Assembly: GCA_963704755.1 (NCBI GenBank)
Contig: OY969938.1
Coordinates: 1,440,001-1,472,000, forward strand
Source: an uncultured Chloroflexia bacterium
GTDB lineage: Bacteria > Chloroflexota > Anaerolineae > Anaerolineales > Anaerolineaceae
DNA: 32,000 bases
Reading direction: 5' to 3'
The notes under the pieces are model-generated. The model did no database searches and had not been told where the DNA came from. It saw only the letters and a list, made by a program, of their open reading frames with translations. The translations under genes and the position numbers were made by a program. Numbering within the stretch: position 1 is the first letter of the stretch; every line of letters starts with the position of its first letter. Positions 2,964-30,934 of this stretch are shown in pieces.

Positions 2964-3016
2964 CCGAATTTGAGAGGTTTGCGGAGGCTTTGCCCCCGCA
3001 AACCTCTCAAATTCGG
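2964..3016. repeat. long palindromic hairpin element, family A (CCGAATTTGAG...CTCAAATTCGG)
   Basis: Checked base by base: 24 pairs with 1 mismatch, 3-nt centre TTT within GGCTTTGCC. Starts 38 nt after the cbiO stop. Confidence 0.9.
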
Positions 3017-3095
3017 TTAATTCTTGCACGGGCCTGAGTAATTACAAGTATTCAATTATTTCCGAAAACGCAGCCGCGCAAGCCGTTCAGGAGAG

Positions 3096-3152
3096 CTGGG
3101 TGTTTTTATTGTTTTTGTGTGCTTCGCACACAAAAACAATAAAAACACCCAG
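3096..3152. repeat. long palindromic hairpin element, family B (GGGTGTTTTTATTGTTTTT...AAAAACAATAAAAACACCC)
   Basis: 27 perfect base pairs, centre TTC within GCTTCGC, followed by TTTCTTTTTT. In tandem with the 2964-3016 element. Confidence 0.9.
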
Positions 3153-3421
3153 TTTCTTTTTTGTAGTTAAGCCTGGCAAATAAGAAGCCTGAGAAGTAAC
3201 TAAAAGTGTAAGGCAATTGAAATTAATTTCGGGGCCGGGTTCTGCTAAAGTAATATAATCACAGGAAGAGTGTTCGTGAGTCCACTGAAAAATTACTCGC
3301 TAAGGGCAAGGTTGACCGATCCTTACCCGTTTGGTTGGGCAGTTATGATTCTTCTCTTTATCAGAAAAACATATTTCAGCGGGGTCATCTGTACTTCCCA
3401 AAATCCAGCAAAGGAAAAGAT

Positions 3422-4459
3422 ATGAAAATTTATATCACGGGGATCAGTGGGTTCCTGAGTATTAACCTTGTGCGCTATCTGCTCCAGCGCGGCTATACCG
3501 ATATTTCTGGGATCGACCTGGTCGATTTTACCTACCCGGAACGCGACCAGATCGAATTCTTCCAGGGCGATATTCGCGACAAGGAAGCAGTGAAAAAGAG
3601 CATGGCCGGCGCGGACGTGATCGTCCACACCGCAGCGGCCTTACCTTTGTACTCCCCAGAAGATATTTACACCACCGATGTCATCGGTGTCCGCAATTTA
3701 CTCGAGCAAGCCCGTGAATACGGCGTCAAGCGCTTCGTCCACATTTCTTCGACCGCCGTGTATGGTGTACCGGATCACCACCCCCTGTTCGAAACGGATG
3801 CCATCAACGGCGTAGGGCCTTATGGCAAAGCAAAAGTGGAGGCCGAAGGCATTTGCGAAAAATTCCGTGAGGAAGGTATGTGCGTGTCCATTTTGCGCCC
3901 CAAGTCCTTTGTTGGGCCGGAACGCCTGGGCGTGTTTGCCATCTTCTACGACTGGGCCTGCCAGGGCAAGAACTTTCCCATGATCGGCTCGGGCAACAAC
4001 CGCTACCAGCTCATGGATGTAGATGATTTTTGCCAGTCGATTCTGGCGTGCCTGACCGGCGACGAAGCCGCCGTCAACGACAACTTCAACGTGGGCGGGG
4101 CCGAATACACCACCATGAAAGAGGATTACCAGGCCGTTTTGGACGAGGCTGGCTTTGGCAAGCGCATTATCCCCTTCCCGGCCGGGCCGGTCATCCTGGT
4201 GCTGAAAGTACTCGAGGCGCTCAACCTCTCCCCGCTCTATCCGTGGATCTACGAAACCGCCGCCAAAGATTCCTTCGTCTCGATCGAAAAAGCTCAAAAA
4301 GTATTGGGGTATAAACCAGAATATTCGAACAAACAGGCGCTGGTGCGCAACTACCGCTGGTACCTGGCCAACAAAGACACTTTTACCGGCGAGGAAGGCG
4401 TCACGCACCGCGTTCCCTGGAAACAAAAGGCCCTGAAAGTCGCCAAGATTTTCTTCTAG
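3422..4459 (+). CDS. NAD-dependent epimerase/dehydratase (extended SDR) family protein
   Basis: ATG 3422 preceded by AAAGGAAAAG. N-terminus MKIYITGISGFLS (Rossmann TGxxGxxG-like), HISSTAVYG, catalytic YGKAK (YxxxK). The upstream part of the track ORF (3335-3421) has no support. Confidence 0.8.
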   Translation: MKIYITGISGFLSINLVRYLLQRGYTDISGIDLVDFTYPERDQIEFFQGDIRDKEAVKKSMAGADVIVHTAAALPLYSPEDIYTTDVIGVRNLLEQAREYGVKRFVHISSTAVYGVPDHHPLFETDAINGVGPYGKAKVEAEGICEKFREEGMCVSILRPKSFVGPERLGVFAIFYDWACQGKNFPMIGSGNNRYQLMDVDDFCQSILACLTGDEAAVNDNFNVGGAEYTTMKEDYQAVLDEAGFGKRIIPFPAGPVILVLKVLEALNLSPLYPWIYETAAKDSFVSIEKAQKVLGYKPEYSNKQALVRNYRWYLANKDTFTGEEGVTHRVPWKQKALKVAKIFF

Positions 4460-4478
4460 AAACAATCGTATACCCGAT

Positions 4479-4549
4479 AAAGATGACCTAAAAAAGAGGT
4501 GTTCGCGGTGACGTTGTCACCGCGAACACCTCTTTTTTAGGTCATCTTT
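4479..4549. repeat. long palindromic hairpin (unique sequence), terminator-like
   Basis: AAAGATGACCTAAAAAAGAGGTGTTCGCGGTGAC / GTCACCGCGAACACCTCTTTTTTAGGTCATCTTT, about a 34-bp stem around a 3-nt centre. Starts 20 nt after the SDR stop. Confidence 0.85.
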
Positions 4550-4581
4550 CTCCATAGCCCGAAACATCAGGAAATTCTATA

Positions 4582-28336: not shown

Positions 28337-28342
28337 AAATTT

Positions 28343-30584
28343 GTGCAGACCACTGAACGCCAATTTTTACCGGGTTCAGGGGATCCGGGACCCATCCCCC
28401 TGGCGCGCTTTCTGCCTCACCTGCCGCCGGGTGTTTTCAGTCGCTGGCTGGCAGAAAACGTCGCAGCGGGCGAATGGCTGCTGGACCCAATCGGTGGGCA
28501 TCCCGGCCTGGCGCTCGAAGCTGCCCGGTCCGGCCAACGGGTACTGGTGGCCAGCAATAACCCCATCCTGACCTTTATGCTGGAGGTCTTGGCCTCCGGT
28601 CCCAAAAAAGAAGATTTCGAAGCCGCCCTGGCGGCCCTGGGAGCCAGCCGGCGGGGTGAAGAGCGCCTGGAGCGCTATCTCAAGTCGATTTACCTTACAC
28701 CCTGCGCTGTCTGCGGCAGGGACGTTCCGGCCGAGGCCTTTCTGTGGCAAAAAGACCAGCCCCAGCCCTTTGCGCGCATCTATCACTGCCCCGCCTGTGG
28801 CGACGAAGGCGAGCGGCCGGTCGTCCAGGCTGACCTGGACAGGTTGAATGCCCTGGGCAGCGATGCCCTGCACCGCTCCCGCGCGCTGGCGCGCGTCGTG
28901 CAGGCCGGCAGCCCGACCGAACAGGTCGAGACCGCCATCAAAACTTACCTGCCGCGCCCGTTGATCGTCCTGACCACCCTGATCAACAAATCCGAGGGCT
29001 TATCGCTCTCGCCCGAACGTAAAGCCCTGCTGACCGCCCTGCTGATCAGCGCCTGCGATGAGGCCAATACGCTCTGGCCGCACGGCTCTTCCCGTCCACG
29101 CCCGCGCCAGTTGACCATCCCCAGCCAGTTTCGTGAGAATAACCTGTGGAAGGCGCTGGAAGACGCCATTTCGCTCTGGCTGGCCAGTTCTACGAAGGTG
29201 CGATTAACCCATTGGCCCGAGCTTCCCCCACCGGGAGGCGGCATCTGCCTGTACACCGGGCGGGTTAAGTCCCTTCTGCCGCTGCCAGAAAATATCCCAA
29301 TCAAAGCCCTGGCGACGATCCTGCCGCGCCCCAACCAGGCCTTCTGGACCCTGTGCGCCTTGTGGTCAGGCTGGCTGTGGGGCCGCGAGGCGGTCCAGCC
29401 GTTGCGCGGTTCGCTGGAGCGGCGCCGCTACGATTGGCACTGGATGACCCACGCCATATCCGGCGCGCTGAGTGGGGTCAACGCCCGGCTCCCGGCCGGC
29501 ACGCCTCTGTTTGCCCTGGCATCCGAATTGATCCCCGGTTTCCTGCTCTCGCTCTTCTGCGGCCCGCTGACGGCCGGCTACCGGCTGGAGAGCCTGGCTT
29601 ACGACGAAAGCCACGACCAGGCCCAGTTCTACTGGCGCTCCGCCCCCACAGCGGCACCGGCCGGCACGTCTAACCCCAAGACGGTCCTTGCACAGGCCTT
29701 CCGCGAGCATCTTTATCGGCGGGGTGAGCCGGCCCCTTACCTGGCCTTGTTCGCCGCCGGGCTGCAAGGCATGGCCGGAGCAAATTTGCTGCCTCAGCAT
29801 GAATCGGGCGTCAACCCGGACCTGCTTGGCCGGCTCCAGGGCACCATGAGTGAGGTCCTGCTGGATAGCAAAGTCTTCGAACGCTTTTCGCCTCACGGCC
29901 AATCCGAAGAGGGCAGCCTGTGGGGGCTAAAGGACTACGGCGAGGCAGTTCAGCCGCTCTCCGACCGGGTCGAAAGGGCCATTGTAAAACTGCTCCTCGA
30001 CCACGATCCACTGACGCTGGAAGAAGTCCACCGCCAGATCGACCAGGATTTTCCCGGCCTGCTGAACTCCTCCCGCGGAACTGGTCGACGCCTGCCTCGA
30101 TTCATACGGCGAGATAGTCCCGGACCTGCCCGGCACCTGGCGCCTGCGCGCGCAAGACACCGTCATCGCCCGCAAACGCGACCTGCGCACGGTGCGCCTT
30201 TTACTCGACCGCCTGGCCGGCACACTCGGTTTTACCTGCCTGGGCGAAGAGGTTTTACACTGGCAAATCGCCGGCCAGCAGCCGGCTTACCTGTTTTTCC
30301 CGGTGGCCTCGGCCATCGTCAGCCGGCATGTCTTTCAACCCCAGCCGCTGCCGCGCTCCCGCTGCGTGCTGGTCATCCCTGGCGGTCGCGCCTCGCTGTT
30401 GAGTTATAAACTGGACCACAACCCGCAGCTCAGCCGGGCGGTCAACCAGGGCTGGCGCATCCTCAAATTCCGCCATCTACGCCAGCTTGCCGAACGCACC
30501 GTGATGGATTTGTCGCTGTGGGACGAGCTGCTGGATGCCGACCCGCCCAGTTGGGACAGCGCCACCCAGATGGCCATGTTGTAG
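28343..30584 (+). pseudogene. large zinc-ribbon protein resembling COG1743-type DNA methyltransferases but with a degenerate catalytic motif, interrupted by one frameshift
   Basis: LLDPIGGHPGLALEAARSGQRVLVASNNPILTFMLEVLASGP resembles motif I of Zn-ribbon N6-adenine methylases (vLDPFaGGGsIPLEA.RLG....a.DLNPVA). CxxC...CPxC ribbon (CAVCGRD..HCPACGDEG). At the expected DPPY position it reads ILPRPNQAFWTLCALWSGWLWG. After ..QIDQDFPGLL the frame turns to Arg/Pro junk. The next frame, open after TGA 30063-30065, continues TPPAELVDACLDSYGEIVPDLPGTWRLRAQD...LLLDRLAGTLGF.. into track ORF 30192-30584. Confidence 0.5.
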
Positions 30585-30616
30585 TAGCGCTTCGCAAATC
30601 CAATGGACTATCGTAA

Positions 30617-30676
30617 AAAGCGATCGGCCCGGTCCCTCCGTACCGTCGGCCGAGGCTGCTCTTCAACCCACGCCTG
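30617..30676 (+). repeat. 60-nt direct repeat, copy 1
   Basis: AAAGCGATCGGCCCGGTCCCTCCGTACCGTCGGCCGAGGCTGCTCTTCAACCCACGCCTG. Internal hairpin TCGGCC-CGGT-[CCCTCCGT]-ACCG-TC-GGCCGA. Confidence 0.85.
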
Positions 30677-30797
30677 TACGGCTCCAAACACCGCGCAAAC
30701 CTGTTGGGTTCCGCTTGCGCCGTAAATGGCCAATGCTATTTAAAGGCCCGCTCAACCCAACCTACACACGACTCCAATAATCAAAAGGAAATTCGCC

Positions 30798-30857
30798 AAA
30801 GCGATCGGCCCGGCCCCTCCGTACCGTCGGCCGAGGCCACTCTTCAACCCACGCCTG
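30798..30857 (+). repeat. 60-nt direct repeat, copy 2 (181 nt downstream of copy 1; 4 mismatches by eye)
   Basis: AAAGCGATCGGCCCGGCCCCTCCGTACCGTCGGCCGAGGCCACTCTTCAACCCACGCCTG, followed by the small hairpin CCCGGCTT-CGA-AAGCCGGG at 30861-30879. Confidence 0.85.
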
Positions 30858-30897
30858 CGACCCGGCTTCGAAAGCCGGGCTACATTCTTAAAGACAG

Positions 30898-30934
30898 AGA
30901 GGAGTTTGTGGTGCTTCGCACCACAAACTCCTCT
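30898..30934. repeat. palindromic hairpin with GCTTCGC centre
   Basis: AGAGGAGTTTGTGGTGC TTC GCACCACAAACTCCTCT, 17 perfect pairs. Lies 7 nt downstream of the PBP stop (minus strand). Confidence 0.85.

Follow-up and report, generated by a model that had tools for sequence, protein, structure and literature searches.

Long palindromes capped by a three-nucleotide loop are spread through the chromosome of an uncultured Chloroflexia bacterium (Anaerolineaceae; GenBank assembly GCA_963704755.1, contig OY969938.1), and the orientation of these loops is confirmed to follow the direction of replication. The starting point was a 32,000-nucleotide stretch of this contig (positions 1,440,001–1,472,000, hereafter the window), in which an earlier reading of the sequence (the original prediction) had seen every asymmetric hairpin centre point the same way on the forward (+) strand, and had proposed a polarity tied to the DNA strand, through replication direction or recognition of single-stranded hairpins, rather than to local transcripts. 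Genome-wide, the centre GCGAAGC sits on the G-rich strand in ~75% of copies; the G-rich strand carries the leading-strand sequence and acts as the lagging-strand template.

Protein matches place the bacterium among anaerobic Chloroflexota (Anaerolineales). The genome is a single 4.87-Mb contig (54.8% G+C, 96% complete), in which we catalogued all perfect hairpins with a stem of at least 12 bp and a loop of 3–7 nt. This gave 729 hairpins with stems mostly of 20–28 bp, 444 of which have 3-nt loops, these being GAA or TTC in 195 of the 444 cases; among the 206 TTC/GAA hairpins, 177 have exactly GCGAAGC or GCTTCGC at their centre. On the + strand, TTC:GAA counts are 79:29 in the C-rich half of the genome (negative GC skew, the half that holds the window) and 21:66 in the G-rich half (positive skew), so that the two orientations are equally frequent in neither replichore (p = 6e-12 for loop orientation vs. 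skew half, all stems of at least 12 bp). Restricted to GCGAAGC centres, the same ratio is 70:27 in the C-rich half vs. 17:63 in the G-rich half (Fisher p = 1.1e-11), which bears out the earlier claim that a uniform orientation in the window was unlikely to arise by chance. The loop polarity, 3:1 for GAA and 46:5 for the odd palindromes described below, is also far stronger than the GC skew itself (3.6%).

The two places at which the hairpins change orientation are those at which the skew changes sign, as the original prediction had proposed to check. Cumulative GC skew has a sharp maximum at 270,509 and, as its minimum, a flat plateau at ~2.50–2.85 Mb with the lowest point at 2,752,274, and a two-change-point likelihood scan of hairpin orientation placed the flips at 0.30–0.58 Mb and ~2.60 Mb, i.e., one coinciding with the skew maximum (0.27 Mb) and the other within the skew-minimum plateau. 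The sole 16S gene (2,065,887–2,067,389, − strand) points along the direction of replication, provided that the origin lies at the skew minimum (~2.6–2.8 Mb). The best DnaA-domain open reading frame (ORF; 1,709,087–1,709,560, − strand) lies ~1 Mb from both skew switches, and the skew-inferred origin (2.5–2.85 Mb) is therefore not beside dnaA.

Loop orientation is independent of the strand of the flanking genes, in line with the earlier claim. Spacers between + genes and between − genes have TTC:GAA ratios of 24:5 and 21:7, respectively, in the C-rich half, and of 3:11 and 5:18 in the G-rich half; convergent and divergent spacers show a like polarity, and the effect of gene strand on loop orientation is not significant (Fisher p = 0.27). 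The gene-strand bias of the genome is itself weak (~54% co-oriented, as estimated with our own hexamer gene caller). An orientation linked to transcripts could be suspected because most hairpins are intergenic and many lie past gene ends, but the polarity is the same next to + and − genes, ~20% of the hairpins (41 of 206 TTC/GAA hairpins) lie between divergent genes, and no T-run follows the stem on either strand. Chance or an assembly artefact fits poorly with a p-value of ~1e-11 and a flip at the skew switches, the assembler being blind to the replichore, and we give next to no credence to any of these three sources of polarity. Intrinsic (Rho-independent) terminators can likewise be ruled out, because orientation is independent of gene strand, because 41 of the 206 hairpins fall between divergent genes, and because in the main families each arm is T-rich and then A-rich on both strands, with no T-run past the stem.

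The polarity depends on a long stem. GCGAAGC with a stem of only 2–3 bp is unpolarised, at 299:298 in coding and 93:87 in intergenic sequence (392:385 in total), vs. 128:43 when the stem reaches at least 16 bp. This excludes a simple k-mer skew: polar motifs of the Chi or KOPS type share the flip at origin and terminus, but in these the short duplex motif is itself skewed at every occurrence, and the 7-mer without a long stem is unskewed here. Local inversions were also considered for the ~25% of copies that are discordant and were ruled out, local skew being reversed at 4.5% of these vs. 5.3% of the concordant ones. Mismatches in the stems are rare (30 in 422 hairpins), even though many paired positions vary from copy to copy, which points to copy-back correction or strong constraint; the mismatches, taken as a second strand indicator (G·T vs. 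A·C), gave 14:8 among 22 informative cases, which is not significant.

The hairpins are the perfect central palindromes of ~110-bp miniature inverted-repeat transposable elements (MITEs), together with related and unique palindromes. When families were built by BLAST clustering with the loop masked, the family consensus ran past the perfect palindrome to shared ends (GTAACTNCTCAG...CTGAGNAGTTAC), with terminal inverted repeats (TIRs) of 12–14 bp (GTAACTNCTCAGSC). The left end GTAACNNCTCAG occurs at 84 sites and the right end CTGAGNNGTTAC at 81, with 19 exact pairs spanning 110–115 bp, and complete copies of 110–115 bp are flanked by 8-bp direct repeats of a duplicated AT-rich target (target site duplications, TSDs), such as GAAACCTC, ACCAAATA, ATTGATTC, CTTCAATA, GAATTATT, TATTTCTA and GATTATGT. 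With such TIRs and 8-bp TSDs, these are therefore MITEs of the cut-and-paste (DDE) type. They resemble MITEs of the IS66 family (ISBst12 group) in a TIR starting GTAA..., an 8-bp TSD, a length of ~110 bp and the lack of an ORF, but differ in that their centre is a 20–30-bp perfect palindrome and that no IS66-type DDE transposase is detectable: PF03050 (DDE_Tnp_IS66) had no match across the 96%-complete genome, and no TIR pair of 1–3.5 kb was found to enclose a transposase. No transposase ORF was identified within three TIR pairs of 2.4–2.9 kb, each of which has the look of two independent MITEs with genes between them.

Asymmetry of the sub-terminal flanks gives every copy its own orientation, which can be compared with that of its loop. 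The MITEs insert either way round relative to replication: element orientation as defined by the flanks was compared with replichore in five families (p = 0.85, 0.06, 0.41, 1, and 0.07), and a separate motif-based check gave 10:10 for whole-element orientation vs. replichore (full set of counts 10:10, 9:11, and 15:5). In the three large families, loops are close to 50:50 in the frame of the element (24:19, 21:21, and 15:13) but 31:12, 29:13, and 21:7 in the frame of replication. The polarity is thus a property of the three central base pairs, independent of element orientation and acquired after insertion. Even among near-identical copies, the loop lies in the same orientation relative to the flanks in 29 cases and inverted in 35. 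Grouped by age, polarity rises from 0.69 in the quartile of most recent copies to 0.80 in the quartile that has diverged most, and in family D, which is young and highly similar, the loop tracks the flanks (12:6) and not replication (8:10).

These results weigh against a different origin of the pattern, namely that polarity is set at insertion through single-stranded transposition by a strand-specific Y1 transposase (IS200/IS605 or RAYT type) that uses the lagging-strand template. IS200/IS605 elements are oriented by replication, and the genome encodes six ORFs with a Y1_Tnp domain (PF01797), one of them flanked by family-B copies. However, the carriers have TIRs and 8-bp TSDs, both absent from Y1 elements, whole-element orientation is uncorrelated with replichore in the five families and in the motif-based check, the youngest copies show a weaker rather than a stronger polarity, and young family D is not polarised by replication at all, all of which makes polarity at insertion very improbable. 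An identity of the elements themselves with REP/RAYT or IS200/IS605 is ruled out by the TIRs and TSDs, and they lie beside only one of the six Y1_Tnp ORFs. In IS200/IS605, REP/REPIN-RAYT and integron attC systems, DNA hairpins are likewise strand-dependent and orientation can follow replication, but there a strand-specific recombinase sets the polarity of the whole element, whereas here only the 3-nt loop is polarised. Of the two interpretations in the original prediction, replication direction therefore stands, while recognition of single-stranded hairpins, in the sense of a strand-specific transposase fixing the polarity at insertion, is not supported, the carriers having TIRs, TSDs and a replichore-random orientation.

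The loops follow a common rule when read on the G-rich strand. GAA outnumbers its complement TTC there by 145 to 50, GGA outnumbers TCC by 13 to 4 and GCA outnumbers TGC by 12 to 3, and all G-N-A loops together outnumber all T-N-C loops by 186 to 75 (p = 5e-12). Other loop pairs are still more one-sided, with ATC 14 vs. GAT 0, ATT 14 vs. AAT 0, TTA 12 vs. TAA 1, CTG 7 vs. CAG 0, GTC 5 vs. GAC 0, and TCA 5 vs. TGA 0, while TTT (41) exceeds AAA (27) and GTA is unpolarised (16 vs. 18 for TAC), probably owing to its membership in a young family. In odd palindromes, where complementary loop ends leave the central base as the sole asymmetry, the central pyrimidine lies on the G-rich strand in a ratio of 46:5 (p = 2e-9); read on the + strand, this corresponds to 28 pyrimidines and 5 purines in the G-rich half, and to 0 pyrimidines and 18 purines in the C-rich half.

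To look at loop change by position, triloops were read on the G-rich strand and each was grouped with GAA or TTC, whichever was nearer; the resulting “lineages” are thus nearest-ancestor groups defined by loop similarity. Their totals are 222 for GAA and 186 for TTC (p = 0.08), which places the starting loop orientation close to random. Loops are still intact in 65% of the GAA lineage vs. 27% of the TTC lineage, and the changes differ in position. In the GAA lineage, 28 changes fall on position 1 (27 of them G to A), 41 on position 2 and a single one on position 3; in the TTC lineage the corresponding numbers are 22, 25, and 56, with C to T the commonest (41). Positions 1 and 3 taken together are changed in 29 of 215 loops of the GAA lineage vs. 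78 of 153 of the TTC lineage (p = 7e-15). Freezing of the G and A in G-N-A loops is thus confined to copies that carry them on the G-rich strand, whereas drift at the middle base occurs whichever way the loop lies.

On the G-rich strand, where G and A are kept and N varies, the centres correspond to the motif d(GCGNAGC), i.e., GC-GNA-GC with N free. This mini-hairpin comprises two G·C pairs and a sheared G·A pair, with N stacked but unpaired; d(GCGAAGC), of seven nucleotides, melts at 76.5 °C, is nuclease-resistant and is poorly bound by SSB, and hairpins with a TTC loop act like ordinary DNA (PMC13037366). The centres described here agree with the mini-hairpins of Hirao and colleagues (PMC13037366) in that the dominant one is exactly GCGAAGC and that GGA and GCA are preferred on that strand too. 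In nature, such mini-hairpins have been known from isolated sites, in phage or plasmid priming origins and in promoters, as opposed to the hundreds found here, which cap 20–30-bp stems chromosome-wide and have a replichore polarity.

The best explanation, to which we assign a probability of about 0.6, is that hairpins extrude on the lagging-strand template after insertion, and that their loops then decay or invert in a loop-dependent manner. Palindromes would extrude from the single-stranded lagging-strand template at the fork, where the unpaired loop bases would be open to damage or error-prone copying. A T-N-C loop on that template would be fully exposed and altered (C to T, T to A, C to A, etc.) or inverted far more often, whereas in a G-N-A loop the sheared G·A pair would shield G and A, and only N would be exposed and drift. 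Surviving copies would then carry GCGAAGC on the lagging-strand template at ~3:1, and derivative loops centred on T or C there almost exclusively. Because the loop is scrambled relative to the flanks, inversion of the loop by template switching is needed as well; such inversions would be occasional, and may themselves be biased. We infer that the affected strand is the lagging-strand template, and that the cause is exposure and not selection.

Several aspects of this scheme have precedents. In E. coli, hairpins on the lagging-strand template expose loop cytosines, notably the 3′ C of 3-nt loops (PMC9122604). Replication-linked asymmetries such as the GC/TA skew and, in E. coli, the deamination of hairpin-loop cytosines recorded in APOBEC3A uracilomes (PMC9122604) share with our data the flip at origin and terminus and the 3-nt loops on the lagging-strand template, and the 3′ C of the TTC loop is also the base most often changed here (41 C to T), the differences being that we observe fixed evolutionary change in natural palindromes, that bases other than C change too, and that the G and A of GNA are protected. 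Template switching flips loops and leaves stems perfect (PMC8794818), and the minute hairpin-loop inversions known from chloroplast DNA and from template-switch mutations (PMC8794818) resemble the present case in that a loop flips against conserved flanks, with perfect stems and compensatory differences. In the literature searched, no report was found of a replication-strand bias of the flipped state in such minute inversions, and no description of replichore-polarised palindrome loops.

Other observations weigh against extrusion followed by loop-dependent decay. Both the extrusion of hairpins and the direction of mutation are read here from loop patterns, with lineages assigned by nearest loop, and some variant loops may have been inherited within MITE subfamilies rather than arisen independently. 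GAT, AAT and TAA, the loops expected from frequent unbiased inversion, are almost never seen on the G-rich strand (1 in 41), so that inversion must either be specific to certain loops or biased, or proceed more slowly than the mutation of loops; at the same time, the scrambled loops of near-identical copies (the 29 same and 35 inverted mentioned above) demand frequent inversion. The commonest change at the exposed T is T to A, a change unlike the classical signatures of damage to single-stranded DNA. Nearest-neighbour folding (ViennaRNA, DNA parameters) gives −32.7 kcal/mol for both strands and cannot rank them, and the extra stability of the GNA over the TNC strand is accordingly taken from published work (PMC13037366) and not from folding energies.

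A last point of this kind comes from experiments with asymmetric palindromes carried by E. coli. That an asymmetric loop stabilises the hairpin of one strand, with an outcome that depends on replication direction, is an idea shared with a 1991 study by Trinh and Sinden, in which deletion was reportedly favoured when the stabler hairpin lay on the lagging-strand template. By that account, palindromes with the stabler hairpin on the lagging-strand template would be lost preferentially, which would give a bias opposite to the one seen here. The two systems differ in their read-out, which was deletion there and is loop sequence here, and the stabler cap is enriched on the lagging-strand template in our case.

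Inversion could also be the directional step. A fast-folding GNA hairpin on the leading-strand template would stall synthesis of the leading strand, whose nascent end would switch templates within the palindrome and copy the loop the other way round. The GNA would thereby move to the lagging-strand template and there cease to provoke switching, the whole working as a ratchet. Inversions do occur, since even copies that are nearly identical differ in how the loop lies relative to the flanks, and loop inversion by template switching is documented (PMC8794818); in addition, structure-prone, hairpin-forming repeats stall leading-strand synthesis in a reconstituted eukaryotic system (PMC9296464), and there is a slight excess of the GAA lineage (222:186). 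However, lineage totals this near to equality (p = 0.08) mean that a ratchet is not the main source of the 3:1 ratio, and on its own it leaves without explanation why positions 1 and 3 are hypervariable in one orientation only. We therefore consider it an unlikely main cause.

Selection would give a similar picture if GNA-capped hairpins were useful on the lagging-strand template, as SSB-free landing or priming sites (like G4/ssiA) or as replication-coupled signals, with misoriented copies decaying. The near-invariance of G and A in G-N-A on the G-rich strand only, with N free, looks like constraint on the sheared G·A pair, stems are near-perfect (30 mismatches in 422 hairpins), mini-hairpins are found at primase and ssi sites and bind SSB weakly (PMC13037366), and large numbers of GC-rich GCGAAGC hairpins occur in several further genomes of the class. 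Yet structural shielding of G and A from damage yields the same pattern with no function, the carriers are MITEs whose AT-rich landing sites are random, the hairpins are missing from congeners of the same genus and thus dispensable, and starting orientations near 50:50 give no hint of preferential retention of whole elements. We regard selection as possible but doubtful, and hold the same view of its broader form, in which GNA-capped long hairpins would be a selected chromosome feature of this and other Anaerolineae, excluding SSB and serving replisome priming or restart as at the phage G4 and ssiA origins, with MITEs as the raw material and maintenance limited to loops in the right orientation.

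The distribution of the hairpins among relatives is patchy. In twelve congeners of the same genus they are absent (0–1 hits), while among 300 sampled genomes of the class, GC-closed GCGAAGC hairpins are strongly enriched in several unrelated metagenome-assembled genomes (MAGs). In four enriched MAGs, neighbouring hairpins on one contig are co-oriented 38:13 (counted by hand), and on 20 short contigs of one MAG (G205) loop orientation agrees with local GC skew 19:12, which is not significant. It is thus suggestive, at most, that the polarity is general across Anaerolineae MAGs. The loci examined in G205 (L045–L064) contain GGCGGC-GAA-GCCGCC hairpins in arrays of three, ~50 bp apart, with AGA/TCT, GAA/TTC and AAA/TTT loops; many contigs end inside these arrays, and the middle loop seems to vary independently of how the outer hairpins are ordered.

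In the window itself (positions counted from its first nucleotide), the inventory of the original prediction proved accurate. All six GCTTCGC centres were found on the + strand (3121, 7664, 15578, 16321, 20431, and 30913), each at the tip of a long inverted repeat, and the two GCTTTG centres are present as well, one as a TTT triloop (2989–2991) and the other as a 7-nt loop (19455–19461). No hairpin in the window has GCGAAGC on the + strand, in agreement with the claim that no centre points the opposite way; the lone minus-strand GCTTCGC (26753–26759) lies outside any hairpin, and the bare 7-mer count of 11 (7.4 expected) is unremarkable.

Three family-B palindromes have perfect stems and a TTC loop on the + strand: 3096–3152 (27-bp stem, loop at 3123–3125, i.e., GCGAAGC on the −, G-rich strand), 15552–15610 (28-bp stem, loop at 15580–15582; the DNA fold to which the −32.7 kcal/mol given above refers, either strand), and 20407–20461 (26-bp stem, loop at 20433–20435). 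The same + loop occurs in a family-C element (7614–7720) with a 24-bp perfect inner stem (loop at 7666–7668), in a family-A element (16277–16371) with an imperfect stem (arms 83% complementary, loop at 16323–16325), which lies between divergent genes and is therefore no terminator, and in a palindrome between convergent genes (30887–30945) with imperfect 28-bp arms (89% complementary, loop at 30915–30917). The family-A palindrome at 2964–3016 (arms CCGAATTTGAG...) is the one with the + triloop TTT, that is AAA on the G-rich strand, and the hairpin at 19439–19477 has a 16-bp perfect stem below its 7-nt loop GCTTTGT.

Two palindromes absent from the earlier list also obey the genome-wide loop rule. 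The one at 4476–4552 (37-bp arms, 97% complementary) has GTT on the + strand (4513–4515) and so presents AAC on the G-rich strand, as in the genome-wide majority (12:3), and the one at 6241–6295 (26-bp perfect stem) has TGC (6267–6269), i.e., the G-N-A loop GCA on the G-rich strand, also in the majority orientation (12:3). The remaining two are family-A palindromes whose right outer arm contains an additional A, namely 21894–21942 (within 21891–21946; 23-bp perfect stem, loop ATA at 21917–21919) and a degenerate copy at 25612–25663. The bulged A does lie in the right + arm of both, as had been noted, but it does not serve as evidence of polarity, the genome containing only five half-compensated bulged-A copies (4:1 in the replication frame), too few to carry weight.

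As for neighbouring genes, a tRNA gene (7481–7564, − strand) lies ~50 bp from the family-C element at 7614–7720, and a tRNA was the sole match in an Rfam scan of the window. A chromosomal dihydropteroate synthase (DHPS) gene (19475–20401, + strand) scores best against the Sul4 model, at 409 bits, under the 600-bit cut-off of that model and far over the general DHPS cut-off. It is an ordinary Chloroflexota folP, of the lineage that probably gave rise to sul4.

The genome also contains other dispersed repeats. A separate imperfect-hairpin repeat, GATCGGCCCGGTCTCCAGACCGAGGCCGCTCTT, is present in 119 copies, with the whole motif on the G-rich strand in 33 and on the C-rich strand in 86, a replichore bias that may mark an element whose insertion really is strand-specific. 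In a third family (TGGGTTACGGGC..., 133 copies), the split is 84:49. The commonest 12-mer in the genome, cGTAGCCCGGCTTTCaAAGCCGGG, belongs to a REP-like family of 181 copies (GTAG tag and short hairpin), whose replichore split of 100:81 is not significant. Finally, two large CRISPR arrays, at 1,720,244–1,724,254 (58 repeats) and 2,540,917–2,547,601 (98 repeats), have the repeat GTTTCAATCCACGCTCCCCGTGTGGGGAGCGAC in common.

Hairpins formed at the fork by long palindromes, and the strand on which they form, are known mostly from engineered E. coli constructs and from the over-expression of deaminases, rather than from ordinary bacteria left unperturbed. The genome described here, from a wild bacterium, offers hundreds of natural reporters, in which asymmetric bases record the replication strand at ratios from 3:1 to ~9:1. 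If general, such a “loop skew” would be a new strand asymmetry from which replication direction and past inversions could be inferred, as well as a natural gauge of structure-dependent mutation or selection at replication forks. It would also be evidence that the GNA mini-hairpin differs in its behaviour from its complement in vivo, and would allow the insertion orientation of MITEs to be separated from their later evolution. Lastly, it raises the possibility that the replisome uses GNA-capped hairpins.

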